64,000 nt of DNA from Parcubacteria group bacterium GW2011_GWC1_36_108. GTDB lineage: Bacteria > Patescibacteriota > Minisyncoccia > Moranbacterales > GWC2-37-73. The position numbers were made by a program, and so were the translations under genes. Below the pieces are notes generated by a model. That model saw nothing but the letters and a program-made list of their open reading frames with translations, did no database searches and was not told where the DNA came from. The DNA lies in NCBI GenBank assembly GCA_000991245.1, contig LBRD01000006.1:103340-167339 (forward strand). The letters are read 5' to 3'. Of this stretch, positions 2,930-55,721 are shown piece after piece. Within the stretch, counting starts at the first letter, position 1. Every line of letters starts with the position of its first letter.

Positions 2930-2930
2930 A

Positions 2931-25362: not shown

Positions 25363-25368
25363 AGGATT

Positions 25369-38444: not shown

Positions 38445-40004
38445 TTATAAGTCAGTTCCGGAATATGATAGGTTCAGTGATTTATTGATAAGAGGAAAAT
38501 CTGGCACGATGTTGCCTGGCCCCATAATACCGAAAAGTGCCCAATTGCAAAATGATGGATCACGTGGAAAACATCGCTCAATAACACCATTTTTAATTTC
38601 AAGTGCGCACAAAATTTCTCCACGCCAAGATTCCACGGCGCTAATTGCATATCCATCCTTAATTTCAACAGGAACAGAAACATCCCCCGTTTCCATTTCA
38701 GCGATAATTTTTTCAATAAAATCAATTGACACTTTCATTTCTTCAATACGCACCAAATAACGTGAGTGCACATCTCCCTTTTTTTTCAAAGAAACAGTTG
38801 TTGGATATTTTTGATAAGCAGCATAGGGATGATCACGCCGCACGTCGCGATCAAGTCCTGACCCGCGAGCAGCAATTCCAAGCGCGCCAAAGGCTCTTGC
38901 CGCTTCCTGTCCAAGCACACCGGTTGTTTGCATACGATCAAGAAAACCATCGCTGGCAAGCGCCAACATAACAATTTTATTCATTTCAAAATATGCATCT
39001 TTGGAGATTTCCAGAATTTTTTTCAGTTGCAAATCATTTAAATCCTTTGTAACACCGCCGATAGTGATGAATTCTCGCCAAAAACGATTACCAAAAATAT
39101 CATCAGAAAGGCGCATCATTCTTTCCTTAATCCGAAAACCATTGGCCGCAATAAAGCTATACCCTGTTCCCATTCCGCCAATATTGGCCAGGTCGTGAAT
39201 ATGCATCGTCAATCTTTCGAGTTCCAAAACAAGTGTGCGCAACATTTTTGCGCGATCAGTTACATTGCAATTTGAAATAGTTTCGATTGCTTGAACATAT
39301 GCAAGACAATGAGAAGCTGCCATATCGCCAGAAATTCCTTCGACGTATGGCAAAGCATCTTTGGGATTTTTTCCTTCCATCAATTTTTCAACTCCCTTGT
39401 GTGTGAAAAACAATTTTCCTTCCAAAGTTAAAATCCTTTCTCCCGCAACATTAAAGCGAAAATGCCCCGGTTCGATAATTCCTGCGTGAATGGGCCCCAC
39501 TGGAATCTCAAAAATTCCTTCACCCTCAATATGATGCATTGGATATGGAACATTAGCCTTTTCAAGTTTAGTATTAACAGCAAAATCTTTTCGAAGTGGA
39601 TGCGTCCCTTCTGGAATATTTTCATGATTTACTAATCTTCTTGGATCTGGATGACCAACAGCAATGACACCAAACATATCTTGCATATATCGCTCATACC
39701 AATGCGCAGCCATAATTGTTCTCGTGATTGAGGGATAGCTTGGATCATTTTCCGGCAAACTTGCTGACAACCTTAACCATTGATGATTCGCATCATCTCC
39801 GAAAATCACATTCACACCAAAAGTCTGATTTTCTTTGCGGTTATCCGTGCCATACAAAGAAGACAAAAATAATTTGTGTTCATCAACAAGCGATGTTGAA
39901 ACACGCGCCAAATCTTCTCGCGAAACTGTTGCAAAAACAGTATTGTTTTTAATCTCCACAATTTTAACTTCTGATATTTTTTTTAAAATTTCTTGAATGT
40001 TCAT
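38445..40004 (-). CDS. Fused NuoC-NuoD-like subunit (Ehr-type large subunit): NiFe-hydrogenase-large-subunit fold lacking the Ni-binding cysteines
   Basis: NuoC-like N-domain (NVIFGDDANHQWLRL) and NuoD/HycE-like domain (IPVGPIHAGIIEPGHFRF). Where hydrogenases have RxCGxC the protein has GISGDMAASH; the C-terminal DPCxxC is replaced by DPSFCNW. Start chosen at MNIQEILKK; the track ORF extends to 40091. Confidence 0.8.
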   Translation of the reverse strand: MNIQEILKKISEVKIVEIKNNTVFATVSREDLARVSTSLVDEHKLFLSSLYGTDNRKENQTFGVNVIFGDDANHQWLRLSASLPENDPSYPSITRTIMAAHWYERYMQDMFGVIAVGHPDPRRLVNHENIPEGTHPLRKDFAVNTKLEKANVPYPMHHIEGEGIFEIPVGPIHAGIIEPGHFRFNVAGERILTLEGKLFFTHKGVEKLMEGKNPKDALPYVEGISGDMAASHCLAYVQAIETISNCNVTDRAKMLRTLVLELERLTMHIHDLANIGGMGTGYSFIAANGFRIKERMMRLSDDIFGNRFWREFITIGGVTKDLNDLQLKKILEISKDAYFEMNKIVMLALASDGFLDRMQTTGVLGQEAARAFGALGIAARGSGLDRDVRRDHPYAAYQKYPTTVSLKKKGDVHSRYLVRIEEMKVSIDFIEKIIAEMETGDVSVPVEIKDGYAISAVESWRGEILCALEIKNGVIERCFPRDPSFCNWALFGIMGPGNIVPDFPLINKSLNLSYSGTDL

Positions 40005-40141
40005 AATAATTTTATAAAAATAAATTTCTAATTCCCAATTTCCAATTCCTAATAAAAATTTTAATGCCCAATTCCCAAATTTTGAATTCAAGCATTTGAA
40101 ATTTTGTTGGAAATTTGATATTAGAAATTAGTAATTTTGCA

Positions 40142-41620
40142 CTACTGTGCAATGTATATTATATCTTTAGCGATCAAATCAATAAATTTAAGTCCGTCGG
40201 CTGATGAGAAAAAGAAGGTTAGTCCAACAACCAAAATCAATTGCACAATCATTACCCAGTGCGTAAGATTCCATTTTTCTCTATTCCCTAAAGACGTGAT
40301 GTCTTCCCCTTCAGAAAAAAACATTCCGATTGTTGAGCGAAGCATTGCGTATGCAATCACACTTAAGGCTGCAAAAATAAGCAATGACAAAAATGGATGC
40401 AGTGCAAAAGCACTAGTAAACATTGTATATTCACTTACAAACAAAATTGACGGAGGAAGCGCAATGATCGACAAAATACCAAACAAAAACAATATTGCTG
40501 TGAAAGGGGCTTTTTTCATCAAGCCTTTTATTTTTTCCGTCTGGGTTGTTTTGTAATTTATCAATATTTCGCCCGCTCCGAAGAAAAGCATTGACTTGGT
40601 AAGTGTATGTCCAATCATATGAATCACAGCTGCTAATGCTCCAATTGGAGATAATGCCAGGGCAAAAGTAATGATACCCATATGTTCAACGCTTGAATAC
40701 GCCAACATTCTTTTGTAATTACTTTGCACTAACATCATAAAAGCAGGAACTATGATTGAAATAAAACCAAAAAACAAAAATAGATGCCCTGTCCATTCGC
40801 TGCTTCCTAGTGCTAAATCAGTAATAAATCTAAAACGAATAATTCCATACAGTGCAATATTAAGCAAGATTCCAGAAAATAGACCGGAAATTGGCGAAGG
40901 CGCATTACTGTGTGCATCAGCCAACCAAATATGCATCGGCACCAAACCGAGCTTTGCTCCAAAACCAATAAAAATAAAAACAAAAGCCCATCTGGCAATA
41001 TCCGAAGAAAGCAAATGCGCATTTTGAGCAAGATTTGTTAAAGTAAAAAGATCGCTGCCACTTATGCCAGCCAAAGATGACCCATAACCAAGAAGCAAAA
41101 TTCCAAGCAACCCCAAACTTATCCCTGTTGAACAAATAATAATATATTTCCAAGCGGCTTCGGCTGATGTTTTTTTGCGATAAAGTCCAACCAAAAATGT
41201 TGAGGATAGCGTCGTGCCTTCAAGCGTCATCCAAAGCAACAGCGCATTATTAGCCATAACTGTAATCATCATACAAAGAGCAAAGATATGAAACAATCCG
41301 AAATAAAGCTTAAGATCACTAAGTGTTAGAATCTTTTCTTCATATTCATGCCCAATATAACGAAAACTCACAACAGCTGCGGACACATATACAAAAGCAA
41401 CCAGCGTTGCCATCAAAGCTGAAAAATTATCCACAAGCCATACGCTATCAGACCAAGCAGGTGATGACTGAAGAAGAACCGGCAAGGACATCGCGAAAAC
41501 TGAAGCTCCCGCAGCAATTGCAAGCAAAAGACTACTTTGACGAATATGTTTTTCTTTTTTAAGAAAAATCACGCAAGCTGTTGCAACAAGAATAATGATG
41601 ATTGTAATAATTGGTGTCAT
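40142..41620 (-). CDS. Complex-I NuoN/NuoM (MrpD) antiporter-like membrane subunit
   Basis: 492-aa polytopic protein with the conserved antiporter-like core; position in the nuo/hyf-like gene string. Confidence 0.7.
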   Translation of the reverse strand: MTPIITIIIILVATACVIFLKKEKHIRQSSLLLAIAAGASVFAMSLPVLLQSSPAWSDSVWLVDNFSALMATLVAFVYVSAAVVSFRYIGHEYEEKILTLSDLKLYFGLFHIFALCMMITVMANNALLLWMTLEGTTLSSTFLVGLYRKKTSAEAAWKYIIICSTGISLGLLGILLLGYGSSLAGISGSDLFTLTNLAQNAHLLSSDIARWAFVFIFIGFGAKLGLVPMHIWLADAHSNAPSPISGLFSGILLNIALYGIIRFRFITDLALGSSEWTGHLFLFFGFISIIVPAFMMLVQSNYKRMLAYSSVEHMGIITFALALSPIGALAAVIHMIGHTLTKSMLFFGAGEILINYKTTQTEKIKGLMKKAPFTAILFLFGILSIIALPPSILFVSEYTMFTSAFALHPFLSLLIFAALSVIAYAMLRSTIGMFFSEGEDITSLGNREKWNLTHWVMIVQLILVVGLTFFFSSADGLKFIDLIAKDIIYIAQ

Positions 41621-41769
41621 AAAGTTGTATTAAAAAATTCTAAAGGCTAAATTTTAAAGTCTAATTCAATTCTAAATTCTAAAGTTTAAATTAAAATGCA
41701 AGTCCTTTTATACTTTTCACTTTAGATTTGATTTAGTATTTAGTACTTAGACTTTAGCCTTTAATGATC

Positions 41770-43380
41770 TTATTCGGTTAAATTACGCAGGTCTTCAGTG
41801 TCAGAAGAACCATGAAATTCTCTGATGCGTGAACCTAAAATTGATAGAATAAATGCACTTGCAACAATGATAACAAACACACCAAGTTCAATTAGTAGCG
41901 GCAATGATTTTACAGTTACCAAAGTAAAAACTGTCACACCATTTTCAATAATAAGAAGTCCTAAAATTTGAGAAAAAATATTACGATGCACTATCATCGT
42001 TGCTAATCCTAAGCCAATAAGAGCAAAGGAAGCAAACAAAAGAGTGTCGAATTCCACCACGCCAACAATTGGAGTTTGCTTCATCACAAAAAATGTTGCA
42101 CCCAAAATAACAACTGCCACAAAATAACTAGAAGCGGGACGGAGAAATGATGGCGAACTTATGAGCTCTTTATGTTTTCTTTGTGCATAGCGAATAACAG
42201 CAGGAACCAAGAAAGTTTTAATCAAAATAGTCACAGCTGCAAAAAGCCACAGATGCTTTTTTTCCTCCCCGCCTAAAATAAAAGAAAGTCCAAGGGCAAT
42301 ACCAGCAATACTCAAAGAAGAAAAGGCGTAGTATCGAAGCATAACTTGTGAGCGAGCACGACCAAATAAAAGTATCACAAAAAATACTGCCAATATAGAA
42401 AATATTGTGTGATATTCAATATCAACATTGATAACAGAAGAAAACATCGCAATCAACATTCCAAACATTGCTGTGAAAAAAGCAATCGACATAAACTCCT
42501 GCATTCTATAGAATCTCATTTTAACAACAACTGTTTCAAGCAAAGCCAAGAATCCCATCGCAACAACAACTTTAATAATTCCAAATAAAACAGCAACAAT
42601 CCCAGCGCCCAAAGAAGCAATCATCCCAAGATTGGTAGCAACCGCAACAGTCTGCGGGAAAATAAAATTTGAAAGCAAAATAGCAAAAACGGTCAGTTTA
42701 ATTGCACTGGCATATTCAAGCATGGCCAAATATGCGCCAGAATATTCAAGAATCATTGCTTCATGTACCATTGTAAGTTCAAGATGTGTCGCTGGGTTAT
42801 CCACAGGGTAACGGGCATTTTCAGCCAAAGTTACCAATAAAAAAGCAAAAACAGAAAGCAACAAATATGGATGAGAAAAAACAAGTTGTTGTCCCACCAT
42901 TCCATCTATTGCAAAAGTACCACCCACAAGACTCATAGCGGCAAAAACCATTATTATTGTCGGCTCAACAAGGGCGGCTATTGTCATTTCACGACTTGAG
43001 CCCATTCCTCCAAAAGCACTCCCCGGATCAAGACCACCCAAAACCAAAAAGATTGAACCTATCATTAAAATCCCACCAACTACCAGAAAATCGCTCATGC
43101 TTGCCAATTTTCCACCAATAAATAGCAGAGGTAAAATAAAGGCCAATGCTATTGAAGTTGAAAAAACCACAAAAGGCACCACGCGAAAAACCCAAGATGT
43201 TGCAGTGGAGATAACCATTTGCTTTCTAAAAAGAGTCGCGAATGTATAATACGGCAAAAAAGGAGATGCGCCCTTGCGTCCTTGAAGACGCGCTTTACAA
43301 AAGCGGACCAAGCCGGAAGCAAACGGCGCAATCAGAATAACAAAAATTCCCTGTAATAATGTTGCTAATATTGGATTCAT
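41770..43380 (-). CDS. NuoH/HycD-like membrane subunit with C-terminal NuoJ/K(HyfE)-like extension
   Basis: N-terminal ARLQGRKGASPFLPYY resembles the HycD/NuoH quinone-loop region; 536 aa is ~200 aa longer than NuoH, and the tail carries extra TM helices. Start overlaps the upstream gene (ATGA). Confidence 0.65.
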   Translation of the reverse strand: MNPILATLLQGIFVILIAPFASGLVRFCKARLQGRKGASPFLPYYTFATLFRKQMVISTATSWVFRVVPFVVFSTSIALAFILPLLFIGGKLASMSDFLVVGGILMIGSIFLVLGGLDPGSAFGGMGSSREMTIAALVEPTIIMVFAAMSLVGGTFAIDGMVGQQLVFSHPYLLLSVFAFLLVTLAENARYPVDNPATHLELTMVHEAMILEYSGAYLAMLEYASAIKLTVFAILLSNFIFPQTVAVATNLGMIASLGAGIVAVLFGIIKVVVAMGFLALLETVVVKMRFYRMQEFMSIAFFTAMFGMLIAMFSSVINVDIEYHTIFSILAVFFVILLFGRARSQVMLRYYAFSSLSIAGIALGLSFILGGEEKKHLWLFAAVTILIKTFLVPAVIRYAQRKHKELISSPSFLRPASSYFVAVVILGATFFVMKQTPIVGVVEFDTLLFASFALIGLGLATMIVHRNIFSQILGLLIIENGVTVFTLVTVKSLPLLIELGVFVIIVASAFILSILGSRIREFHGSSDTEDLRNLTE

Positions 43381-45386
43381 AAAACTATAATTAATGTGAC
43401 AATTAATGTTCCCAAAACAAAAAGCAAATAATATTGAATACGCCCACCCTGAATCACGCGAGCACGCTCAGCCAAAAAATTCAAAATACCTGCGATCGGT
43501 TGATATAATTTATCTTTCCAAACAGATTTTAATGACATAGAAAAAGTATAGTTGCGAATCCAAGGATTAGTCTCAACAACTGCTACCGATTTTAAAACCT
43601 TATCTCTTCCCAATAAATGCAGAAAGAAAAACCTAATTGGGCCAGAAAAAGCCGTGGCGGAATATTGCATTGTTGCATCAATCGATTGCCCACAATCCCA
43701 CGTTTTGTATTTCCTCTCCGAAACCTTGCTGCCAAAAAAATTATACACTGCGTACGTCAGTGCCAAGAAAATTACAAACAGTGAAAATATCATTGATGAA
43801 GAAAGATGACTTGTTATTGCACTGATTGATTGATCAGAAGGCATTGTTGCCAAAATACCACCATTACCGTTTAACCATCCAATAATAGGTTTAGCAAAAA
43901 TACCCAAAACCAACACTCCTGATCCAAGTATCATCACAGGAATACTAAGCATATAATCAGTTTTTTCAGCTCTTTCTTCAATATGATCTGTACGAGGAAG
44001 TCCAAGCATTGAGATACCAAAAATTTTAATCATAGCAAATATTGCCAAACCACTGACAAGTCCCATAAGCGCGATACTGCCCAATATTACCAATATTGCA
44101 ACAGAATCAAGTAGCGGGCTACGTAATAAGCTGATTGCATTTTGAATCAATCCCCACTCTCCGTAAAATGTTCCGAATGGAGGAAGTGGAACTGCAGATA
44201 AAATTGCAATTAAAAATGCAAATGAAAAGAACGGCATAATTTTAGCCAAACCTCCCATCGCCTCAAGACTTTTAGAATGAAAACGACTGATTGCAATTCC
44301 ACTACTCAAAAAAAGTGCTGTTTTAAAAAGTGCATGATTTATTGCATGAAAAACAGCAAACACCACTATAATATTGGAAATTATCACAATACTGTCAGCA
44401 GAGCTTTGGGATAAAAGATAAATTGAAATTCCAAGCATCGTAAAAATAATTCCCATATTTTCAATACTACTATAAGCAAACGCACGTTTCATATCCCTTT
44501 CAATAACCGCATATAACACACCAACGATTGCAGAAAGAAGACCAAGCGCGATAACAACAAGTCCTGCCCAAGCAGGCAAATTCGTCATAGCAAAAACAAT
44601 TTTAATAAAACCATAAATTGCGACTTTAAGCATAAGACCGGACATCAAAGCTGAAATATTGCTTGGAGCTTGCGGATGCGCTTCTGGCAGCCAAACATGA
44701 AATGGAACAAGCCCAGCCTTTGAACCAAAACCAAACAAAAATAGCATGAAAGCAAGTGCGGCTAATGCTGGTGAAAGGGTTGATGATAAAAAAGCAATAT
44801 CAGAAAAATCAAAAAATAAATTTCCGCCACTCAAAATCAAAAAGCCTCCCAAAATTGCTGAGGCTCCAAGATGCGTCATAATAAAATACAAGAAAGCTGC
44901 GCGAACAGACTGAGAAGTTTTGTCAGCCATAACAAGAAAAAAAGATGTGATACTCATAACCTCCCAAAAAAACAAAAACGCAAAAGCGTTATTGGCAAAC
45001 AGTACTCCTTGCATTCCAAAAACAAAAACTACTGTTAAAAATTGTGTGAGCGCAGGATTATAAGTTTTTTCATAAAGCTCCAAATATCTCATGCTATATA
45101 TTCCCACCAAGGCTGACACAAAACTAATAACAATAAAGAAAATAGCGCTTAAGAGATTTACTGTCGGCGCAAAATTAAAAAGCCAATTCCATTGTCCCAA
45201 AATAATTTCCTTTGGGGCAAAATTAAACAAATATAAAATTCCAGCGATAAAACCCAGAGTATTTACTAAGACAAAAAGTTGAACGGATTTTTTCCATTGA
45301 CCGCCAATAAGCGCAAACAGAGCGGCAAAAAATAGGCCAAAAAAATAAACAAAAAAACCGAAAGCTATTAAATCTATCGTTATCAT
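43377..45386 (-). CDS. NuoL/MrpA/HyfB-like antiporter-type membrane subunit
   Basis: 669-aa polytopic protein of the NuoL/HyfB family. Confidence 0.75.
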   Translation of the reverse strand: MITIDLIAFGFFVYFFGLFFAALFALIGGQWKKSVQLFVLVNTLGFIAGILYLFNFAPKEIILGQWNWLFNFAPTVNLLSAIFFIVISFVSALVGIYSMRYLELYEKTYNPALTQFLTVVFVFGMQGVLFANNAFAFLFFWEVMSITSFFLVMADKTSQSVRAAFLYFIMTHLGASAILGGFLILSGGNLFFDFSDIAFLSSTLSPALAALAFMLFLFGFGSKAGLVPFHVWLPEAHPQAPSNISALMSGLMLKVAIYGFIKIVFAMTNLPAWAGLVVIALGLLSAIVGVLYAVIERDMKRAFAYSSIENMGIIFTMLGISIYLLSQSSADSIVIISNIIVVFAVFHAINHALFKTALFLSSGIAISRFHSKSLEAMGGLAKIMPFFSFAFLIAILSAVPLPPFGTFYGEWGLIQNAISLLRSPLLDSVAILVILGSIALMGLVSGLAIFAMIKIFGISMLGLPRTDHIEERAEKTDYMLSIPVMILGSGVLVLGIFAKPIIGWLNGNGGILATMPSDQSISAITSHLSSSMIFSLFVIFLALTYAVYNFFGSKVSERKYKTWDCGQSIDATMQYSATAFSGPIRFFFLHLLGRDKVLKSVAVVETNPWIRNYTFSMSLKSVWKDKLYQPIAGILNFLAERARVIQGGRIQYYLLFVLGTLIVTLIIVL

Positions 45387-45395
45387 ACAATTATA

Positions 45396-45935: not shown

Positions 45936-45949
45936 AAAAAACGTTATTA

Positions 45950-46136
45950 TCAGAAGTTACGCGTTTCGAAACATTTCTTTTTTGGCCAATTGTTGGCGAC
46001 AGCGACTCTTTGAGCTTTTGGATACTCGCCCCGTCAAATTGTTCACAGTAGTGAACACCAGCTTTGCTGGATTTGACGGGGTAAACATTCATCCAAAAGC
46101 GTGCCAAAAAAGAAATAGTTGAGAAAATGCGTAAGT
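45950..46136. repeat. REP-A copy D (long form, inverted orientation) with TIRs
   Basis: Reverse complement of the copy-B architecture, including the nested hairpin ccccgtcaaattgttcacagtagtgaacaccagctttgctggatttgacgggg; ends agttacgcgttt ... aaatgcgtaagt. Confidence 0.55.
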
Positions 46137-46385
46137 CCTAAATATTCATATTTGCCATTTTATCAGCAATAACATCTATTCTGCTCGCTATTTTAATTTT
46201 TGGCAAGACCTGTGGTGCATAAATGCCTAATTACTAATTCCCAATTTCTAATAAAATTCCCAATATCAAATTTCAAAATTTTAACATTAGAAATTTATTT
46301 TTTATTAGAAATTAGATATTAGACATTAGAAATTTGCAAATAATATATATGCAAATACATATGCAAACATCGCACTCACTTGTGA

Positions 46386-46823: not shown

Positions 46824-46968
46824 AAATATAATAAATTAATTCCTAATTTCCAATTCCTAATTTCCAACAAAATTTCAAATACTTTTAATTTAAAATTTAT
46901 GCATTGGACATTAAGATTTTATTAGAAATTAGATATTAGATATTGGAAATTATGAAATCAAAAAATTA

Positions 46969-48351
<1,383 letters not shown>

Positions 48352-48579
48352 TTATTTATTAGGATAATTAATGTTATTTAAATTATGTTTATAATTTCGA
48401 ATTTCCAATTTTGAATTTCGAATCAATTTCTAATGCTTGAATTTTTAATGTTTCAAACATTATATCATTCAGATTTGATTCGAAATTCAAAATTCAGACT
48501 TCGAAATTGTTTCGAGAACCATGTTCTATTTGTGGCCTTTTTAAGCCCTAAACAGAATCAGAATCTCGAATTATTGTTT

Positions 48580-48645
48580 GACCTGTCGCTCGCGAGCGAC
48601 GGGTCTTGACTTTTTGGTGATTTGGGTGTATACTATACGGTTGTA
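48580..48645 (+). promoter_or_regulatory. Near-consensus sigma70 promoter (TTGACT-17-TATACT) preceded by a 26-bp GC-rich palindrome (candidate operator)
   Basis: gacctgtcgctcgcgagcgacgggtc (13-bp arms, one G-T mismatch) at 48580-48605, immediately followed by TTGACT (48606-48611), a 17-nt spacer and TATACT (48629-48634). Confidence 0.55.
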
Positions 48646-48694
48646 GTTATTTAAATAAATCGCAACAAAATTCTTTTGCAAGGGGAGTAGTGAA

Positions 48695-48919
48695 ATGAGC
48701 TCAAAACTTATTCAAGTAAATACCTACCATGTCGGTCACAATGGTGGTCCAGGTGGACCAATTAACATGCAACGCTTCATGGATCACTTCAAACTCATAT
48801 CCAAGTTTGATGAGCTCCCAAAAAGCATTAAATTAATTACTGCGGATGGGACAGAAATAGAAATCATGCCAGATGAGTCAACTGGTAATCTATGGGTTTC
48901 TATCTACACGCGCCCATAA
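48695..48919 (+). CDS. Hypothetical 74-aa protein encoded antisense within the atp operon spacer
   Basis: AAGGGGAG SD 8 nt upstream of ATG; own promoter and terminators; no recognisable domain (MSSKLIQVNTYHVGHNGGPGGPINMQRF...). Confidence 0.5.
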   Translation: MSSKLIQVNTYHVGHNGGPGGPINMQRFMDHFKLISKFDELPKSIKLITADGTEIEIMPDESTGNLWVSIYTRP

Positions 48920-48929
48920 CACCCCTTTA

Positions 48930-49028
48930 CCGCTCCGTTCCGAGATTCATTCGGAATGTGAGCGGTTTTTTTATTTTTTCCAAATTTTCAAAACTACTTT
49001 TTTTGTCATTCCGAACTTGTTTCGGAAT
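48930..49028 (+). terminator. Two consecutive stem-loops with T-tracts downstream of the 74-aa gene
   Basis: ccgctc...gagcgg with T-run (48930-48990), then ttccgaa cttgt ttcggaa (49008-49028). Confidence 0.45.
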
Positions 49029-49183
49029 CTAGAAGAGCATGAATGTTCAAGCCCGACGAGATCCTGAAACACCCGCCTCGACTCGCGAGACGATCGCTCG
49101 TCGAAGCGAGGCGGGAGTTCAGGATGACAATATATTTTAAATTTGCATTTTCCTAAGAAGCTAAAAAGCTAAAGCCTAATAAG

Positions 49184-50143
49184 CTACTCAAGGGCTGCTC
49201 TCCCTGCTGAAATCTCAGCGATTTCCTGCGTAATCTTTCCTTGTCTGATTTGGTTATATGCCAGAGTCAAATCCTCACTCATCTCTCCGGCTGCGTCGGT
49301 GGCGTTTCTCATGGCGAGCATTCGCGCAGATTGCTCGGAGGCTTGCGATTCCAAAACTGCGTGGAAAAGCTGCATCTCAATCAAACGCGGAATGATAAAT
49401 TCCAAAACCTCTTCGGGACTAGGCTCAATCTTATATTCAACCATAGGCTCTTCCAATCCATATTCTTTAGCAATAATATCCATTTCAGCAATTTGTTTTT
49501 CAATATCAATTTTTGAAATCGGCAAAACCTGACGAATTCTGGTTTGCTGATTTACAGCACTGACATAATCAGTATACACAACAACAACTTTGTCATATTT
49601 TTTTGCCAAATAATCTTCCATCACAATTTTTGAAAGTGGTTTGATGTCAGCGACAGTCGCAAATTTTCCACCATCTTCAAAAGCAGCGATGATATCTTTT
49701 TGCATTTTTTTCACCATACTCTCACCTTTTTTTCCAATCGTAATAAAATCAATCTTCAAATCTTCGTCTTTGATTTTTGATTCTATTTTCTTTTTTCCAA
49801 TACGGTTTATTTTCAATTTTTCAGGATGCAAAATTTCTTCTTTAATTTTTTTGGCAACTTGCGTGTTAAATGATCCGCAAAGTCCGCGGTTAGAAGTCAC
49901 AGCAATAATCAAAACACTTTTCACTTCGCGCACTTCCAAGAAACCATATCCTTGTGAAGATTCAAAAGCTCGCGCCAAGTTTGTCAGCACACTCCAAGCA
50001 GCATGAGCGTATGGTCTAATCCCCAGCACACTAGCCACTGCGCGCCTCATTTTTGCAGCACTAACCATCTCCATCGCTTTTGTTATCTTGCGAGTGGAGT
50101 TAATAGAGCGTATTCGTCTTTTTATGTCGAGTGATGAAGCCAT
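49184..50143 (-). CDS. atpG: ATP synthase gamma subunit
   Basis: KRRIRSINSTRKITKAMEMVSAAKMRRA N-terminal helix and C-terminal ...AQLTLEYNRARQ-like end (TLAYNQIRQGKITQEI). Confidence 0.9.
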   Translation of the reverse strand: MASSLDIKRRIRSINSTRKITKAMEMVSAAKMRRAVASVLGIRPYAHAAWSVLTNLARAFESSQGYGFLEVREVKSVLIIAVTSNRGLCGSFNTQVAKKIKEEILHPEKLKINRIGKKKIESKIKDEDLKIDFITIGKKGESMVKKMQKDIIAAFEDGGKFATVADIKPLSKIVMEDYLAKKYDKVVVVYTDYVSAVNQQTRIRQVLPISKIDIEKQIAEMDIIAKEYGLEEPMVEYKIEPSPEEVLEFIIPRLIEMQLFHAVLESQASEQSARMLAMRNATDAAGEMSEDLTLAYNQIRQGKITQEIAEISAGRAALE

Positions 50144-50275
50144 ATGTTTATATTAAATATCAAATTAAAAATAACAAATATCAAATGAATTCCAAATGCC
50201 AAATGTTTTAATTTTGTCATTTAAGAATTTAAGCATTTATTTGAAATTTTTAATTTATAATTTGAAATTCTGCTT

Positions 50276-51781
50276 TTATGTGGTCTGATATATTTCCTTA
50301 AACTCCTTAATCGCCTTTTCCAATCCCGCCACAACGTCTTCTGAAAGTTCTTTCTTTTCTGAAATTAGTGCGATCAATTCTTTAGCATTAGAATCCAAAT
50401 ATTTATGAAAATCTTTTTCCCAAGTTTTGATTTCTTCCACCGCCACATCATCCAAAAATCCATTCGTCAGTGCATACAAGATTGCAACTTGATGCTCAAC
50501 AACCATTGGTTCGTATTGTCCTTGCTTAAGAATTTCAACTGATCGTCTTCCACGTTCAATCTGAGCGCGAGTTTTTTCATCAAGATCAGAGCCGAATTGT
50601 GCAAACGCTTCAAGTTCACGAAACTGAGCAAGTTCAAGACGAATCTTTCCAGCCACTTTTTTCATAGCTTTGATTTGAGCGCTACCACCCACACGAGAAA
50701 CTGAAAGTCCCACATTTACGGCTGGACGAATTCCTTTATAGAATAAATCTGATTCCAAGAAAATTTGACCGTCAGTGATAGAAATAACATTAGTTGGAAT
50801 GTATGCACTAACATCTCCTGCTTGCGTTTCAATAATCGGAAGTGCGGTCATTGAACCACCACCGAAGTCTTCATTAAGTTTCGCACTTCTTTCCAAGAGT
50901 CGTGAATGCAAATAAAAAACATCTCCTGGATATGCTTCGCGTCCCGGTGGACGTTTCAAAATCAAAGAAATCTGACGATATGCCCAAGCGTGACGAGAAA
51001 GATCATCGAACACGATCAAAACATCCTCTCCTTTGTCCATAAAATATTCTCCAAGCGCGCAACCAGAATATGGAGAAATGTATGAAAGCGCTGAAGATTC
51101 AGATGCTCCTGCTACCACAATAGTTGTATATTCCATTGCTCCACGTTTTTCAAGTTCTCCCAAAATACGTGCAATCTTTGATTCTTTCTGACCAATCGCC
51201 ACATAAATACATTTCATGTTCTGACCTTTTTGATTGATAATGGTATCAATTGCAATCGCAGTCTTTCCAGTTTGACGATCACCAATAATAAGTTCGCGTT
51301 GTCCGCGTCCAATTGGAATCATCGCATCGATAGCTTTAATTCCAGTCTGTACCGGCTGATGAACTGATTTACGAGTAATAACGCCAGGTGCAATTTTTTC
51401 TACAGGATAAAATTTATCAGCTGCAATATCGCCTTTTCCATCTACTGGAATTCCAAGCGGATTAATAACACGTCCGATCATTGCATCAGACACTGGAATT
51501 GAAAGAACTTTGCCCGTGGCTTTAACCTCATCACCTTCTTTGATTCCAGTATAATTTCCGAGCACAATTACACCCACGCGATCTTCTTCAAGATTAAGCG
51601 CCACGCCGATTTCCCCATTTGGGAATTCAACCATTTCTGATGCCATAAGCTCTGAAAGTCCAGAAACACGAGCAACACCGTCACCCATTTCAATAACTTT
51701 CCCAACTTTTTCAGTCGAAGTTTCAGTTTTGAATCCTTCGATTTGCTTTTTTAATTGTTCGATAATGAAATCTTTGTTCAT
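50276..51781 (-). CDS. atpA: ATP synthase alpha subunit
   Basis: [19 protein letters not shown] Walker A; 501 aa. Confidence 0.95.
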
Positions 51782-51870
51782 AATATATAGTTATAAAGTT
51801 TATAAGGTTTTTAAAGTTTATAAAGTAAAATACATCCACACTTTACGAACTTTATGAACTTTACGAACTT

Positions 51871-52287
51871 TTAACTTATTAATTTATTTTTCAAATTAGT
51901 TAATTGTTTTTTCACACTACCATCTATAATATCATCATTAATCTTGATTATAATTCCTCCTTGAATCTTTTCATCAATAACATTCTTGATCTCCACAACT
52001 TTAGCTGAATATTTTTCTTTCACAAATTTTTCAATTTTCTCTTTCATTTCGTGTTCAATTTTTTCCTTTGTCACAACTTCGGCCACAATTATTCCATTTG
52101 CAGCATTATATAATTCGCCAAATTTTTCCATTATTTTTCCAGCATTTTTCAATTGTCCGTCAGCCTTCAATTGCTGCGCAAATTTTTTCACAATAACTAA
52201 AAGCTCCTGCTCGGATTTTCCGTCGGTCATTTCAAAAAGTGTTTGGGAATATTGCTTAATGGATACTTTCATTTTTGTGAATATCAA
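51871..52287 (-). CDS. atpH: ATP synthase delta (OSCP) subunit
   Basis: 138-aa helical protein between atpF and atpA; weak OSCP-like C-terminus. Confidence 0.65.
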   Translation of the reverse strand: MIFTKMKVSIKQYSQTLFEMTDGKSEQELLVIVKKFAQQLKADGQLKNAGKIMEKFGELYNAANGIIVAEVVTKEKIEHEMKEKIEKFVKEKYSAKVVEIKNVIDEKIQGGIIIKINDDIIDGSVKKQLTNLKNKLIS

Positions 52288-52391
52288 ATTTCAAATTAAA
52301 AATTCCAAATCAATTATTAAATTTCTTAATTACAAATTTCAAACATTTGGCATTTGAAATTCATTTGATATTTGTAATTTGTTATTTTTAA

Positions 52392-52880
52392 TTATCTGAT
52401 TGCTTTTGCAATTAAATCAGTGTCTTTCTCACTTGTCATTTTTTCATCAATAAGTTTTCTGGTTGCTGCCACCACCAATTCAGCGATTTGCCCTTTCACT
52501 TCTTGCATCATTTGATTTTTTTCTAATTCAATCTTTTTTGCACTGTCAGCAAGAATTTTTTCAGCTTGCGCTTTTGCCTCAACCACAATTTCTTCCTTGT
52601 TTTTTACAGCCACAGCCTCGGCTTTAGCCACAATTTCTTGCGCAGTTTTTCGAGCCTCAACCAAAACTTCCTTTTCCTTCTGCGTAATTTCAGCGAGCCT
52701 TTTCTGCGATTCTTCTGCGTCTGCAATTCCTTTTTCAATTTTTTCACTGCGCTCATTCATCAATTTCATCATTGGACCATAAGCATAACGCTTAAGCACA
52801 AATAAAACGATGGCAAAGTTTACCAACTGCGCAATGATTAATTTAATGTCGATGTGAAATGTTGAGATTAGTTCTTGCAT
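52392..52880 (-). CDS. atpF: ATP synthase b subunit
   Basis: Single N-terminal TM then long charged coiled coil (AEAE/KAQAE repeats). Confidence 0.75.
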   Translation of the reverse strand: MQELISTFHIDIKLIIAQLVNFAIVLFVLKRYAYGPMMKLMNERSEKIEKGIADAEESQKRLAEITQKEKEVLVEARKTAQEIVAKAEAVAVKNKEEIVVEAKAQAEKILADSAKKIELEKNQMMQEVKGQIAELVVAATRKLIDEKMTSEKDTDLIAKAIR

Positions 52881-53058
52881 AAAATTTTGTAATTTTGTAA
52901 TTTTGTAATTTTTAAATAATGTCCTAATTTCTAATTTTTAAAAATTATAATTTAAGATTTATTTATAAAATTTAAAAATTAAAAATTTGAAATTGCTATT
53001 TTATAATATTCTCATCTCGACTTCCTATTTCTAAGAAGCCGAATGAAAACACTAATAA

Positions 53059-53373
<315 letters not shown>

Positions 53374-53450
53374 TTAATTTCTTAAATTCTGAATTGCATT
53401 TTTGAATTTGTATTTTGCATTCTGCATTTCCTACAACCTAATTCCTGCTC

Positions 53451-54320
53451 CTAATGCTCTTCTGCTGTCGTTGCTATACTCATAAACGCCAAAGTCAAAA
53501 TTGCAAACACTAGAGCCTGCACTATTCCAACTATCAATTCCAAAAACATAAACGGGATTGGCAGCAGGAATGCAGAAATGGCCATCATTGAAGCTAGCAA
53601 AACTTCTCCTGCAAAAATATTTCCAAAAAGTCGAAGACTAAGCGATGCAATCTTGGCGATTTCCCCTACCACCTCAATCAAACCTACGAAAGCTTTGATT
53701 GGATTTACCATTATCAAAATCGGTTCTTTGCGTCCCTTTTTGAAAATTTGCAAAAATGCTTTGATGTTAAAAAATTTATTGAAATGATTCCAAGCTCCAA
53801 CCCAAACAACACCCAGAATGTGCGAAAGAATCACTGCAAAAAGTGAAATTGCTAAGGTTGTGTTAAGGTCAGCTGTAGCGCCGCGTAAAAATGGAATGAA
53901 AACTTTTCCGTGTGCGCCTGTCTCCACAAATCCAATCGTACCAACTCCCGGAAGAAGTCCTAACCAATTGTTTACCAAAATAAACAAGAATAGTGACAAT
54001 ACTACTGGCAAAAATTTTCCTGTTTTTTTGCGAGAACCAGTGACACTATCAGCCAAATTCAAGGCTTGTTCTAAAAGAATTTCAAAAATATTTTGCACAC
54101 CAGACATTTTCTTTGTTTTTTTGCTAGCCTTTTTACCAACAAGCACAAAAAAAGTCACCAAAATGGCAACTGTGATCCAACTCATAACAAGCGAATTTGT
54201 GATTGTAAAATTTCCCACATGCAAAATCGGCTCAGCGAACAAGGTTGATTCTGTTTGAATCTCCTGAGAAGGTTGTGTATTATTTTGTGTTGATAACTCC
54301 GACATCAATTTCTGAACCAC
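53451..54320 (-). CDS. atpB: ATP synthase a subunit
   Basis: VNNWLGLLPGVGTIGF and the conserved Arg-containing TM4 region (ASLSLRLFGNIFAGE). Confidence 0.85.
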   Translation of the reverse strand: MVQKLMSELSTQNNTQPSQEIQTESTLFAEPILHVGNFTITNSLVMSWITVAILVTFFVLVGKKASKKTKKMSGVQNIFEILLEQALNLADSVTGSRKKTGKFLPVVLSLFLFILVNNWLGLLPGVGTIGFVETGAHGKVFIPFLRGATADLNTTLAISLFAVILSHILGVVWVGAWNHFNKFFNIKAFLQIFKKGRKEPILIMVNPIKAFVGLIEVVGEIAKIASLSLRLFGNIFAGEVLLASMMAISAFLLPIPFMFLELIVGIVQALVFAILTLAFMSIATTAEEH

Positions 54321-54409
54321 TGATTAGCACTTGATTATCCTGATTGCACATGATTTTTTTATCAGTGAAATCATGTGCGTTCATGTGATAATCAGTGGTT
54401 CTGATTATT
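54321..54409 (-). promoter_or_regulatory. Nested perfect hairpins between atpZ and atpB (candidate processing or attenuation structure)
   Basis: Outer arms gaaccactgatta / taatcagtggttc (13 bp) enclose the inner perfect 10-bp hairpin gcacatgatt / aatcatgtgc. Confidence 0.4.
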
Positions 54410-54643
54410 TTATTTCTTGCTCATTTCTTTTAAACCAATCCTAACCAGCATTACTATCGAGATTATAAATGAAATTGAAACACTTGCCAACATTAGCCAT
54501 GGCTGCGAATGAAAAACTCGATCAAGATATTTTCCAATGATAACGGCAATTACTACCGGAATAGCAATCCAAGCGCTTAGCCTTGTGAAAAGCACAAGCC
54601 CAGGTTGCCACCATGGAATTTTTGGATTTTTCTGCTCTTCCAT
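54410..54643 (-). CDS. AtpZ/AtpI-like small membrane protein preceding atpB
   Basis: 77 aa, two TM helices, position immediately upstream of atpB. Confidence 0.5.
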   Translation of the reverse strand: MEEQKNPKIPWWQPGLVLFTRLSAWIAIPVVIAVIIGKYLDRVFHSQPWLMLASVSISFIISIVMLVRIGLKEMSKK

Positions 54644-55430: not shown

Positions 55431-55721
55431 CTACAAATATCCCTCGAGCAGATCTTTAAATTCAACATTATTCCTTTTAATAAGATCAATTTTCTTTTGT
55501 CGCGTCCAACCCTTTATCCTTTTTTCAGCTACGATCGTATCCATAGCTGTGGAAAAATTTTCATAGAAAACCAATTTATCCACATTGTATTTTTTTGTAA
55601 ATCCTTCAACTTCCTTATTTTTGTGCTGAAAAATTCTACCTACAAGATTACTCGTCATACCAGTATAAAAAACTGTATTGTTTTTATTTGTGACAATATA
55701 TACACAGAATACTTTTTCCAT
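55431..55721 (-). CDS. GIY-YIG nuclease-superfamily protein (YhbQ-like)
   Basis: FCVYIVTNKNNTVFYTGMTSNLVGRIFQHK: GIY...YTG motif and catalytic R/H. Confidence 0.8.
   Translation of the reverse strand: MEKVFCVYIVTNKNNTVFYTGMTSNLVGRIFQHKNKEVEGFTKKYNVDKLVFYENFSTAMDTIVAEKRIKGWTRQKKIDLIKRNNVEFKDLLEGYL

Follow-up and report, generated by a model that had tools for sequence, protein, structure and literature searches.

A predicted redox-inactive Ehr module between an F-type ATP synthase operon and a carbonic anhydrase gene in a Candidatus Moranbacteria genome

Results

In the 64-kb window (the whole stretch of DNA analysed here), which comes from Candidatus Moranbacteria (CPR), an ultra-small groundwater bacterium, an F-type ATP synthase operon is followed by an Ehr module that is predicted to have lost its redox function but to have kept its ion channels. 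The main clue to the role of this module is the next gene, the LbH gene, which the preliminary description had treated as a mere appendage and which, judged by its residues, encodes a catalytically intact gamma carbonic anhydrase. We tentatively favour, at somewhat less than even confidence, the explanation that the cluster encodes a carbonic anhydrase coupled to the proton-motive force, like DAB or NDH-1MS, and energized by ATP hydrolysis in a non-respiring fermenter.

All genes of the cluster lie on the minus strand, with atpZ-B-E-F-H-A-G-D-C (54643-46386) followed by five Ehr genes (45935-38445) and the LbH gene; the order and strand given in the preliminary description, atp genes and then NuoB/L/H/N/CD-like and LbH genes, are thus confirmed. 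The first gene encodes an AtpZ/AtpI-like small membrane protein (54643-54410; PF09527 ATPase_gene1, E=1.9e-8) and has a promoter-like TTGACG-17-GATAAT sequence just 5' of it (54703-54675). Next come atpB (subunit a; 54305-53451; Pfam ATP-synt_A), atpE (c; 53271-53059; ATP-synt_C), atpF (b; 52880-52392; ATP-synt_B), atpH (delta; 52272-51871; OSCP), atpA (51781-50276; ATP-synt_ab), atpG (gamma; 50143-49184; ATP-synt), atpD (48345-46969; ATP-synt_ab) and atpC (46823-46386; ATP-synt_DE), the Pfam families of atpB to atpC having been assigned on the identical locus L001. The Gln and Ser/Thr that bind Na+ are missing from the c subunit, which is thus of the H+ type; therefore, protons are the coupling ion common to the ATPase and Ehr, which fits the earlier idea of a shared ion cycle.

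The Ehr genes encode a NuoB/HycG-like small subunit, EhrB (45935-45396; PF01058), a HyfB/NuoL-like antiporter-type subunit, EhrL (45386-43377; NF005086 hydrogenase 4 subunit B, E=7e-146), a fusion of NuoH/HyfC-like and HyfE/NuoK-like proteins, EhrHK (43380-41770; PF00146 and PF00420, NF008556 HyfE), a HyfF/NuoN/MbhH-like antiporter-type subunit, EhrN (41620-40142; NF005044 HyfF, E=1e-104), and a NuoC+NuoD/HycE-like large subunit, EhrCD (40004-38445; PF00329, PF00346 and PF00374). The reading frames of EhrL and EhrHK overlap by 4 nt, whereas EhrH and EhrK are separate genes in Uhrbacteria and others. The true start of EhrCD is M30 of the listed ORF, as indicated by the homologue length of 519 aa; among its 7189 homologues, the top matches have this length and come from Moran-, Falkow- and Uhrbacteria.

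The cluster is less compact than first thought. It had been described as running without interruption, but the 840-nt gap between atpG and atpD holds a 74-aa ORF on the plus strand (48695-48919) with a terminator-like hairpin of its own (48580-48605); this ORF has no Pfam match and is strain-specific, being present only in identical strains. The spacer between atpC and EhrB measures 450 nt. REP-A, a MITE-like repeat with terminal inverted repeats (about 45951-46145), is indeed located there, but it is not the sole separator that it had been taken for, since an AT-rich palindromic repeat (46221-46353) lies in the same spacer. Further REP-A copies were found by BLAST at 25355-25538 (97% identity), 20390-20523 and 32212-32299, and most cluster spacers contain similar copies of the palindrome (46840-46956, 48393-48508, 50150-50268, 52286-52386, 52891-52994 and 40020-40137). 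When the spacer is folded, REP-A makes up a long hairpin; the folding energy of the spacer as a whole is -141.8 kcal/mol (z = -9.8). No canonical terminator was found in this spacer; nevertheless, being strongly structured and carrying a MITE, it could uncouple transcription of the atp and Ehr halves in this genome. Because the strongest minus-strand terminator-like hairpin of the region (36560-36533) lies directly 3' of a gene for a DUF4349 membrane protein (37560-36634, minus strand; PF14257), the functional unit probably extends to 36533, taking in the LbH and DUF4349 genes.

The linkage of the two halves is neither unique to this genome nor broken by a canonical terminator, and in this respect the synteny comparison supports the preliminary description. 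The atp operon lies directly 5' of Ehr in the same orientation in 22 of the 36 evaluable loci of the closest clade, the linked loci carrying Moran-, Falkow- and Uhrbacteria labels, and the spacer between atpC and the NuoB-like gene shrinks to as little as about 10 nt. Rearranged variants occur in a Daviesbacteria genome and in locus L167, and the rearranged loci L021 and L167 still keep the genes together. The two halves are not linked in some 40% of the close relatives, nor in most of the distant ones. The linkage is thus frequent rather than universal, and the two halves may be co-transcribed.

Little of the redox machinery appears to be left in the Ehr module. Where FeS-retaining homologues have GSCNGCE, GxCxxxGG and PGCPP, EhrB has GSTNAEE, GDGAIDGG and IPGNPP; each CPR lineage that we examined lacks three or more of the four [4Fe-4S] (N2-cluster) cysteines. 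In EhrCD the N-terminal motif is ISGDM, as against ICGxC of true hydrogenases in the same alignment, so that both cysteine positions are occupied by S/M. The C-terminus reads LSYSGTDL in translation, which we take to correspond to the hydrogenase PCxxCxxR motif, with S/G at the two cysteine positions. By these alignments, all four [NiFe] cysteines are missing. In none of the CPR Ehr loci examined did we find a gene for an electron-input subunit (NuoI/HycF, NuoE/F/G or ferredoxin-like). With these cysteines lost and no electron-input subunit encoded, the module is predicted to be incapable of redox chemistry.

The membrane subunits, on the other hand, retain their proton-channel residues, and the module is still an ion machine as far as can be judged from sequence. 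The TM5 Glu, TM7 Lys and TM12 Lys of both EhrL and EhrN are 93-100% conserved among 51-59 distinct CPR homologues. In EhrL, E145, K226, K257 and K358 are conserved at this level (59 CPR homologues); in EhrN, whose best solved relative is MbhH (6cfw_H), E137, K226 and K345 are conserved and the TM8 Lys is replaced by Asn. Conserved to the same degree among CPR homologues are E216, R219, D223, E230, E236 and E241 of the NuoH loop of EhrHK and the Glu residues E508 and E527 of its NuoK-type domain. EhrCD has about 200 invariant columns across sequences down to 60% identity.

The LbH gene (38329-37715, minus strand) matches the CcmM N-domain (NF053794, E=1.6e-46) and carbonic anhydrase (NF040597, E=1.4e-36) models, and its product can be aligned to CcmM209 (3kwc) and Cam (1qrf/3ow5). 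It keeps every catalytic residue of Cam (R59, D61, E62, Q75, H81, H117 and H122). The gene is therefore assigned, by its predicted active site, to the Cam-type gamma carbonic anhydrases, and its product, with its active site complete, is of the ordinary soluble kind.

In relatives the same neighbourhood is occupied by carbonic anhydrases of mutually unrelated classes: CsoSCA-like, Pro_CA_2 and two further beta-like families. Among relatives of the Moranbacteria type, the position 3' of EhrCD is occupied by a gamma carbonic anhydrase (the window, L096 and L175), a CsoSCA-like gene (L095 and L171, the latter with about 92% EhrB identity) or Pro_CA_2 (L007 and L093). Elsewhere, the CsoSCA-like gene follows EhrCD (L087 and L129), precedes EhrB (L090 and L102) or lies between atpC and EhrB (L123). 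The last position is also taken by a carbonic anhydrase-like family with CxDxD/H and HxxC motifs (L103, L104, L109, L116 and L117), which additionally occurs 5' of EhrB in L118 and 3' of EhrCD in L167. Whatever the type of carbonic anhydrase, the DUF4349 gene comes after it (L007, L095, L171, L175 and L177), and the unit may end with DUF4349. Directly 3' of Ehr modules, the CsoSCA-like family is found even in Thiobacillus (L082) and Magnetospirillum ME-1 (L172). A carbonic anhydrase-like neighbour is present in 12 of the 20 fully evaluable close-clade loci; none adjoins the module in the other 8, nor in the majority of loci from the more distant CPR clade. Such genes account for 19 of 100 module-flanking genes and for none of the other 312 genes in these loci, although these counts and the Fisher test overstate independence because the loci are phylogenetically related. 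No carboxylase gene was detected within the 64-kb window, and our literature search turned up no report of a tie between Ehr and carbonic anhydrase.

Discussion

The explanation that we tentatively favour involves a proton-coupled F1Fo ATPase, a cytoplasmic carbonic anhydrase and a Hyf-like Ehr complex. The last combines two antiporter-type subunits with one of NuoH+NuoK type and with a peripheral stub of NuoB/NuoCD. Because the organism lacks a respiratory chain, the ATPase would work in hydrolysis mode, using fermentation-derived ATP to build up proton-motive force. Protons would return through the Ehr complex, and their return would be coupled to the carbonic anhydrase reaction such that incoming CO2 is hydrated one way and bicarbonate is trapped. 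This 'vectorial' carbonic anhydrase would serve bicarbonate supply and/or pH control, and the cluster would then represent an ATP-powered device for CO2/bicarbonate handling. We infer the hydrolysis mode of the ATPase, the direction in which protons flow and any tie, in structure or function, between the carbonic anhydrase and Ehr. There is precedent for the combination, as an antiporter-type subunit and a carbonic anhydrase-like protein form energy-coupled CO2 hydratases in NDH-1MS (PMC6981117) and DAB2 (PMC13144422). The preliminary description had left both directions open, the ATPase energizing the membrane for Ehr or the reverse. The former is the more coherent, because Ehr has no redox cofactors with which to make a gradient and, as a gradient maker, no visible energy source.

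That reverse direction could still be saved if fermentation CO2 were hydrated at Ehr with protons released outside and bicarbonate leaving separately, the resulting pH gradient being used by the ATP synthase to make ATP. Such energy recycling needs the same parts list, an operon with ATP synthase suits a generator-consumer pair equally well, and a CO2-releasing malic enzyme adjoins the module in L016, L157 and L161. We nonetheless consider it improbable: the free energy of CO2 hydration, roughly estimated, is small and environment-dependent, the cluster has no bicarbonate exporter gene, and the scheme is without precedent, known energy-coupled carbonic anhydrases consuming the gradient. A more serious contender, if still an unlikely one, is a set of genes for ion and pH homeostasis that share physiology but do not form one machine. 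Ehr would act as an Mrp-type secondary cation/proton exchanger, not chemically coupled to the carbonic anhydrase, and would either export acid or convert the H+ gradient made by the ATPase to one of Na+ or K+, the carbonic anhydrase only speeding up CO2/bicarbonate buffering in CO2-rich groundwater. The membrane subunits of Ehr are homologous to MrpA/MrpD and match NCBIfam Mrp models, the channel residues are conserved, and the adjacent carbonic anhydrases are ordinary soluble types that many Ehr loci do without. Moreover, in L177 the atp operon is followed by a CsoSCA-like gene and a gamma carbonic anhydrase with no Ehr module at that locus, and for this reason the carbonic anhydrases, instead of docking on Ehr, may belong with the ATPase or with CO2/pH handling in general. 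However, MrpB/E/F/G-type subunits, part of the known Na+ path, are missing; strong purifying selection acts on the NuoB/NuoCD stub and on the coupling loop of NuoH, which is hard to explain without activity at their interface; and in CO2-fixing Proteobacteria, too, Ehr is followed by a gene of the same CsoSCA-like family.

It could also be that Ehr landed beside the atp operon in an ancestor by accident, with no tie in function, and that the spot is prone to recombination and has picked up the carbonic anhydrase genes as unrelated passengers. The abundance of MITEs, palindromes and strain-specific insertions and the broken linkage in many relatives would agree with this. Yet at least three Pfam-confirmed unrelated carbonic anhydrase families, besides the beta-like ones, recur on either side of the module in different phyla and not among the other genes of the same loci, and even the rearranged L021 and L167 hold the atp genes and Ehr together; we rate accident as slightly less probable still than energy recycling. 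The least probable of all, in our view, is a redox enzyme, that is, a six-subunit NADH- or ferredoxin-driven proton pump (hydrogenase or Nqo-like dehydrogenase) feeding the ATP synthase. In its favour are the homology with complex I and the group 4 [NiFe] hydrogenases, public annotations ('Ni,Fe-hydrogenase III large subunit', for example) and the proposal of such a pump for Kaiserbacteria by Danczak et al. 2017 (PMC5581439). The loss of the cysteine ligands in all CPR lineages examined and of any electron-input or ferredoxin-like subunit largely refutes it at the sequence level. Correspondingly, Jaffe et al. 2020 (PMC7304191) hold that CPR Ehr proteins are likely unable to interact with H2.

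The CPR Ehr of the 2020 study and the 'six-subunit Nqo-like/hydrogenase' of the 2017 study are the same complex as ours. Common features are group-4-hydrogenase-like large and small subunits, NuoH-like and antiporter-like subunits, missing metal-binding cysteines and, for CPR Ehr, membership of a monophyletic CPR group. For the terms searched, neither paper mentions ATP synthase or carbonic anhydrase. What goes beyond them is the loss of the NuoB-like FeS ligands, unlike in most non-CPR Ehr loci retrieved, and the flanking of the module by interchangeable carbonic anhydrases and, in many cases, by the atp operon. HyfB, C, E, F, G and I of E. coli hydrogenase 4 (Hyf)/formate hydrogenlyase-2 correspond to EhrL, H, K, N, CD and B, but the CPR module lacks HyfA, HyfD, HyfH, the [NiFe] site, the FeS cluster and the formate dehydrogenase partner, and its gene order is B-first.

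A gamma-class carbonic anhydrase also accompanies a complex-I-family membrane arm in plant and protist mitochondria, and chains of such structures (for instance 6x89 and 8e73) are among the solved relatives of the window's enzyme. The mitochondrial subunits are, however, mostly catalytically degenerate and part of a working NADH dehydrogenase, whereas here all catalytic residues are kept, Ehr is predicted to be redox-dead and the association is one of gene adjacency alone. NDH-1MS and NDH-1MS' with CupA/CupB (PMC6981117) likewise join a complex-I-type scaffold to a CO2-hydrating protein, hydration being driven off equilibrium; but NDH-1MS is redox-driven, with ferredoxin input and retained FeS clusters, which the CPR module lacks, and Pfam scans of the genes adjoining the module revealed no CupA/B-type family. 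DAB/MpsAB (DabA and DabB; PMC13144422) differs in that DabA (PF10070) is absent here, the membrane part consists of five gene products instead of one, a NuoH/NuoK-type coupling unit and a NuoB/CD stub are added, and the carbonic anhydrases, which belong to several classes, are small soluble proteins. Both DAB and NDH-1MS have dedicated carbonic anhydrase subunits that are specialized and inactive alone, in contrast to the ordinary soluble type of the window. Nevertheless, DAB resembles our system in pairing a NuoL-type proton-conducting subunit with a beta-carbonic-anhydrase-like partner, occurs in heterotrophs as well as autotrophs, and is driven by the membrane gradient rather than by redox energy (PMC13144422).

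Organization of the atp-Ehr gene cluster

Pfam and NCBIfam assignments bore out the gene order of the preliminary description, in which an ATP synthase operon, the Ehr module and the LbH gene follow one another on the minus strand. The operon comprises atpZ/I (54643-54410, assigned by Pfam), atpB (54305-53451), atpE (53271-53059), atpF (52880-52392), atpH (52272-51871), atpA (51781-50276), atpG (50143-49184), atpD (48345-46969) and atpC (46823-46386). The Ehr module consists of EhrB (NuoB/HycG-like, 45935-45396), EhrL (HyfB/NuoL-like, 45386-43377), EhrHK (a NuoH and HyfE/NuoK fusion, 43380-41770), EhrN (HyfF/NuoN-like, 41620-40142) and EhrCD (a NuoC+NuoD/HycE-like fusion, 40004-38445), whose true start we place at M30 of the listed ORF, because its homologues are 519 residues long. 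On the same strand follow the LbH gene (38329-37715), discussed below as a gamma carbonic anhydrase (CA), and a gene for a DUF4349 membrane protein (37560-36634). The functional unit probably extends past both of them to position 36533: directly 3' of the DUF4349 gene lies a hairpin (36560-36533; 12 pairs, seven of them G-C) that is the strongest terminator-like one on the minus strand between 36 and 56 kb, and a good promoter-like match is present 5' of atpZ. A locus identical to this one occurs in GCA_000990595.1 and in several groundwater metagenomes. Just upstream of the atp cluster, a 96-residue ORF (55431-55721, minus strand) resembles, by eye, a GIY-YIG nuclease (VYIVTN...FYTGMT...R...H); this assignment is putative.

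The cluster had been described as uninterrupted, with the REP-A repeat as the only separator between atpC and the NuoB-like gene. The genes are indeed co-oriented, but the 840-nt gap between atpG and atpD (48346-49183) holds a 74-residue ORF on the opposite strand (48695-48919, plus), along with a terminator-like hairpin (48580-48605, plus) and GC-rich hairpin repeats. This ORF has no match in Pfam and is present only in identical strains. Among relatives, the same spacer varies from 38 nt in a Falkowbacteria locus (L087) to as much as 1.5 kb with other small ORFs (L171, L096 and L004), and thus represents an insertion hot spot within an essential operon. REP-A, for its part, is a MITE-like element (about 45951-46145) that is bounded by terminal inverted repeats and contains an 11-bp GC-rich hairpin; of its other copies (25355-25538, 20390-20523 and 32212-32299), two have internal deletions. 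However, it shares the 450-nt atpC-EhrB spacer with an AT-rich palindrome. Taken as RNA, the spacer is highly structured (-141.8 kcal/mol, z = -9.8); we found no canonical terminator-like site in it, and its promoter-like matches are weak. Such palindromes of about 100-115 nt, with motifs such as AATTTCTAAT or GAAATTCGAAAT, fill nearly all intergenic spacers of the cluster (54311-54404, 52891-52994, 52286-52386, 50150-50268, 48393-48508, 46840-46956, 46221-46353 and 40020-40137) and could be intercistronic RNA hairpins involved in processing or stability. An Rfam scan of the whole window yielded one tRNA (36055-36136, plus), with no riboswitch or other known RNA in the spacers. The atp and Ehr modules may well be co-transcribed.

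Linkage of the ATP synthase and Ehr genes in related genomes

For comparison, we collected 80 loci anchored on EhrCD, one genome per species, and 80 metagenome loci anchored on EhrB, added individual homologue loci and annotated all of them by tblastn with the proteins of the window. The patterns used in the EhrCD scan, EIPVGPIH and IEPGHFRF, are shared by the large subunit of every group 4 hydrogenase or Ehr complex; among the matches listed, most loci were from outside CPR, the window's own group, and at least about eight were from CPR. The non-CPR loci, which among the matches listed display two gene orders and mostly keep the FeS cysteines, served as the outgroup. To avoid swamping of the metagenome scan by such loci, the EhrB alignment was trimmed to its cysteine-less C-terminal half.

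The synteny comparison called for in the preliminary description found the linkage recurring, rather than being unique to this genome with strong terminators between the two modules. In the close clade (64% identity or more with the EhrB of the window), atpD-atpC lies immediately 5' of EhrB on the same strand in 22 of the 36 loci with enough upstream sequence. The intervening spacer is about 10 nt in L087 (atpC ends at 4389, EhrB starts at 4400), L129 and L131, 82-118 nt in L093, L094 and L096, and about 360 nt by gene calls in an Uhrbacteria locus (L088). Since it can be so short in relatives, the long spacer of the window is best read as a secondary state that arose by repeat insertion. Other arrangements also occur in which atp and Ehr genes stay close together. 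The atp operon is 3' of EhrCD in L167; in a Daviesbacteria MAG (L021) the Ehr module sits between atpD and atpC and is transcribed in the other direction. In the latter locus (2983-21153) the operon is split, with atpH-atpA, an extra gene of 210 codons and atpG-atpD followed by about 12 kb that include Ehr, then a gene for a 238-residue protein and atpC; the gene adjoining EhrCD is IMP cyclohydrolase-like. Linkage is missing from the remaining 14 of the 36 close-clade loci (e.g. L090), from most loci of a more distant CPR clade, and from all non-CPR Ehr or hydrogenase loci among the matches listed. In one subclade (L108, L109, L120, L123 and L135), the gene 3' of EhrCD encodes a protein of about 970 residues combining a UvrD helicase with a PD-(D/E)XK nuclease (AddA/PcrA-like), which probably reflects conserved synteny of the lineage and not function.

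The Ehr module has lost its redox sites but kept its channel residues

The N-terminal motif of EhrCD reads ISGDM, as opposed to ICGxC in true group 4 hydrogenases of the same alignment, and its C-terminal LSYSGTDL, read from the translation, occupies what we take to be the position of the hydrogenase PCxxCxxR motif. Thus, judged by alignment, all four cysteine ligands of the [NiFe] site that characterize group 4 hydrogenases are gone, and the same is true of all CPR homologues. Jaffe et al. 2020 (PMC7304191) agrees with the loss of [NiFe] ligands and the lack of a redox role in CPR Ehr. EhrB displays GSTNAEE, GDGAIDGG and IPGNPP in place of GSCNGCE, GxCxxxGG and PGCPP found in other Ehr loci and hydrogenases, and at least three of the four ligands of the [4Fe-4S] cluster N2 are lost in every CPR lineage examined. 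Most non-CPR Ehr loci retrieved keep these ligands. Exceptions include the Methanosarcinales MAGs L043 and L073 (GSDNSPEIE, GDDACDGG and PGNPP); outside the main CPR group, the cysteines are lost also in L034, L029 and L036, and family HMMs detected no CA in the flanks of these five loci. None of the CPR loci examined contains ferredoxin-like (NuoI/HycF/HyfH) or NADH-input (NuoE/F/G) genes; complex I and NDH-1 are matched neither in N2 ligands nor in NuoI and electron-input subunits. With the cofactor ligands lost and an electron-input gene missing, the module can be neither a hydrogenase nor a NADH or ferredoxin dehydrogenase. The analysis also corrects names found widely in databases, such as "Ni,Fe-hydrogenase III large subunit" or "NADH-quinone oxidoreductase subunit C" and, for the neighboring gene, "Carboxysome protein CcmM".

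What the cluster does contain corresponds to an Ehr complex: large and small hydrogenase-like subunits, a NuoH and antiporter-like subunits encoded together, without [NiFe] ligands. An Mrp antiporter (MrpA-G) is represented only by MrpA/D-like and MrpC/NuoK-like proteins, with MrpB, MrpE, MrpF and MrpG absent from the cluster. Nor is the module decaying. EhrCD has about 200 positions that are invariant among sequences down to 60% identity. Residues through which antiporter-type subunits of the complex I family conduct protons (TM5 Glu, TM7 Lys and TM12 Lys of both EhrL and EhrN, and TM8 Lys of EhrL) are conserved at 93-100% among 51-59 distinct CPR sequences, and conservation is equally strong for the NuoH-type loop (E216, R219, D223, E230, E236 and E241) and two NuoK-type Glu residues. 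Among solved structures, EhrN is closest to MbhH, a subunit of the membrane-bound hydrogenase from Pyrococcus. In complex I, the NuoH loop connects the pocket of the peripheral arm with the membrane arm; its conservation here argues that some process probably persists at the interface of EhrB, EhrCD and EhrH.

The ATP synthase is probably of the proton type

The operon encodes an F1Fo ATP synthase with every subunit intact (a, c, b, delta, alpha, gamma, beta and epsilon, by Pfam) as well as AtpZ/I. Sodium binding by the c subunit of Ilyobacter tartaricus depends on a Gln in helix 1 and a Ser or Thr following the carboxylate in helix 2. The c subunit of the window has neither: helix 1 (GIGIGM) features Ile at the Gln position, and in helix 2 (AFAEAISIY) the Glu is followed by Ala. 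Its closest solved relatives are proton-type c-rings (2wie and the chloroplast ring). The choice between Na+ and H+, which the preliminary description had left to this site, thus probably falls on protons, which are likely to be the ion shared by the ATPase and Ehr.

Unrelated carbonic anhydrases adjoin the Ehr module

The preliminary description named the LbH gene after the Ehr genes and missed its identity. By its residues, the product of this gene is a catalytically complete gamma CA of the Cam/CcmM type: R59, D61, E62, Q75 and the Zn ligands H81, H117 and H122 are identical to those of Cam (1qrf and others) and CcmM209 (3kwc). Two NCBIfam models, one for carbonic anhydrase and one for the CcmM N-domain, match it below their equivalog cut-offs, and no signal peptide is apparent in the sequence.

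In Moranbacteria-type relatives, the slot directly 3' of EhrCD is occupied by one of three unrelated enzymes, followed in several loci by the DUF4349 gene. It holds the gamma CA in the window, L096 and L175, a protein of about 350 residues with a CsoSCA domain (PF20686, above the Pfam cut-off) in L171 and L095, and Pro_CA_2 (PF20393) in L007 and L093. EhrB of L171 is about 92% identical to that of the window. CsoSCA-like genes are also found after EhrCD (L087 and L129), before EhrB (L090 and L102) and in the atpC-EhrB interval (L123); their products share invariant CxDGR and YH-x9-GC motifs, which would correspond to the Zn-binding residues and the Asp-Arg pair of the beta class. Proteins of a further family (210-280 residues; conserved CxDx(D/H) and HxxC; weak Pro_CA match) are encoded between atpC and EhrB in L103, L104, L109, L116 and L117, 5' of EhrB in L118 and 3' of EhrCD in L167, and the 238-residue protein between atpC and EhrB in L021 has CxDxK and HxxC motifs.

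Of the 20 close-clade loci in which the two flanks can both be seen, 12 have a CA-like neighbor; the other eight, like most distant-clade loci, have no adjacent CA. Pfam searches with the neighbors in the distant clade and in CA-less close loci revealed no hidden CA, only housekeeping genes, and these neighbors encode RmuC, YceG, LeuRS, the UvrD-type helicase-nuclease, ABC transporters and transposases. An unbiased Pfam census of the 100 genes next to the module on either side was headed by the epsilon subunit of ATP synthase (15) and by CsoSCA_cat (6); Pro_CA_2, malic enzyme and gamma-type hexapeptide proteins each occurred twice. No CA family ranked among the top ones for 150 further genes of these loci. 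Family HMMs identified CA-like proteins among 19 of the 100 flanking genes and none of 312 others (Fisher test, 5e-13, a value that is indicative only, as the loci are related). The best case for a functional tie comes from the independent recruitment, to one and the same module, of at least three Pfam-confirmed unrelated CA families and of further beta-like ones.

Nor is this tie confined to CPR. The CsoSCA-like family of about 350 residues is widespread in Proteobacteria, where it is mostly annotated as hypothetical, and its gene lies directly 3' of an FeS-retaining Ehr in a Thiobacillus MAG (L082, 12265-13323), the only CA neighbor in the EhrCD-anchored outgroup among the matches listed, and in Magnetospirillum sp. 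ME-1 (L172; CP015848, 2699-11074), after a 30-nt spacer. In Ca. Thiodiazotropha (L173), a CsoSCA-like gene is 1.4 kb away from a cluster of DabA and an antiporter-like protein. In locus L177 (1089-11686), atpZ-B-E-F-H-A-G-D-C runs straight into a CsoSCA-like gene, a gamma CA, DUF4349 and parAB, and the locus has no Ehr; CA genes can therefore persist beside the ATPase alone. In another locus without Ehr (L176), a 519-residue protein (8354-9913) is encoded 5' of a gamma CA. Having the length of EhrCD, it was considered as a diverged EhrCD and rejected (BLASTP E=3); it has no Pfam or NCBIfam match, and its LCVDGR and HLYC motifs fit the beta-CA signature CxDxR/HxxC.

Two other kinds of neighbors deserve mention. 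In the distant CPR clade, an NAD(P)-malic enzyme, which releases or fixes CO2, adjoins Ehr in L016 (11577-12725), L157 (7474-9051) and L161 (4555-6132), in two cases with an N-terminal ACT domain. In a single locus (L100), the genes at 2812-4356, directly 5' of EhrB, encode a permease of the ABC-3 family (PF00950) together with its ATPase; ZnuBC-type importers of Zn/Mn belong to this family, and the transporter may bear on the zinc supply of a CA.

Discussion

Ehr has been assigned no function since its definition, and in CPR it has variously been called a hydrogenase or NADH dehydrogenase or left open. Our results bring together a conserved ion conduit, a coupling unit and an adjacent CA with no redox input, and leave an ion gradient as the only driving force available. 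To our knowledge, CPR bacteria lack a respiratory chain, so this gradient would be made by the F-ATPase, on our reading the only gradient-making enzyme of these cells. Hence we tentatively favor, with a little less than even confidence, a scheme in which the F-ATPase would hydrolyze ATP to produce a proton gradient, the gradient would drive Ehr-coupled, one-way hydration of CO2 by the CA, and the outcome would be a supply or trapping of bicarbonate, control of pH, or both. What the data show are the parts and their order, the lost ligands, the conserved residues, the intact CA site and the recurrent associations; a physical complex of CA and Ehr, the direction of proton flow, ATP hydrolysis by the ATPase and a single transcript are inferred. 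Such wiring would also explain why the atp linkage is seen in CPR and not in respiring Proteobacteria possessing Ehr and a CsoSCA-like gene.

Several other explanations have to be weighed. The loci without an adjacent CA, and L177 with its CAs beside the ATPase alone, weigh against the scheme, as do two further points: the CAs beside Ehr are ordinary soluble types and not dedicated subunits, and the window contains no bicarbonate-using enzyme. An Mrp-like exchanger accompanied by a set of buffering enzymes, without chemical coupling, would accommodate soluble CAs, and the module does share antiporter-like subunits with Mrp, although most of the Mrp set is missing; we regard this explanation as rather unlikely, but it is the one to be taken most seriously. 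A reverse mode, in which the module generates the gradient, would use the same conserved conduit; with no redox input in the cluster, we find it improbable. An arrangement due to chance or passenger genes would agree with the loci in which the atp linkage is broken and is hard to square with CA-like genes concentrated in the immediate flanks, and we give it very little weight. Least credible of all is a redox enzyme, as suggested by Danczak et al. 2017 (PMC5581439); the loss of ligands contradicts it.

The favored scheme of ATP-driven, Ehr-coupled CO2 hydration has relatives among known systems. CPR Ehr complexes, vectorial CAs and gamma CAs on plant complex I are all known already; in the openly available full-text literature, we came across neither a paper that pairs Ehr, or a CPR hydrogenase-like complex, with a CA nor one that describes the atp-Ehr-CA arrangement. 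If confirmed, the scheme would provide the first evidence-based function proposed for Ehr, show what a complex-I-type machine stripped of redox chemistry is capable of, and account for the presence of an ATP synthase and a "hydrogenase" in many CPR genomes lacking a respiratory chain. The repeated, family-independent association with CAs and the link to the ATPase make the coupling of proton flow to CO2/bicarbonate conversion a testable idea, and the Magnetospirillum and Thiobacillus hosts of Ehr and CsoSCA-like genes are cultivable or tractable.

In NDH-1MS with CupA, an antiporter-type conduit and a CO2-hydrating protein form a redox-driven vectorial CA (PMC6981117), whereas DAB, found also in heterotrophs, is driven by a gradient (PMC13144422). 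The CPR module, too, has a conduit, a coupling unit and an adjacent CA, with no redox input. DAB is a pair of DabA (PF10070) and DabB; PF10070 is absent among the cluster proteins and the Pfam-scanned flanking genes, and the same resources recognized the true DabA of L173. Plant complex I carries gamma CAs, and its structures (6x89 and 8e73) are among the solved relatives of the gamma CA in the window. Gene association and residue conservation make Ehr with its CA a candidate member of the vectorial class. It is possible, although we would put it more cautiously than the scheme itself, that they represent a third architecture, in which a cofactor-less Ehr works with interchangeable soluble CAs (gamma, CsoSCA-like, Pro_CA_2 and beta-like) in CPR and some Proteobacteria and, wired to the F-ATPase in CPR, forms an ATP-driven inorganic-carbon/proton device. 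Were this so, the recently defined class known from DAB and NDH-1MS would come to include energy-coupled CO2 hydration on a third scaffold and would reach into non-autotrophic, ultra-small symbionts.
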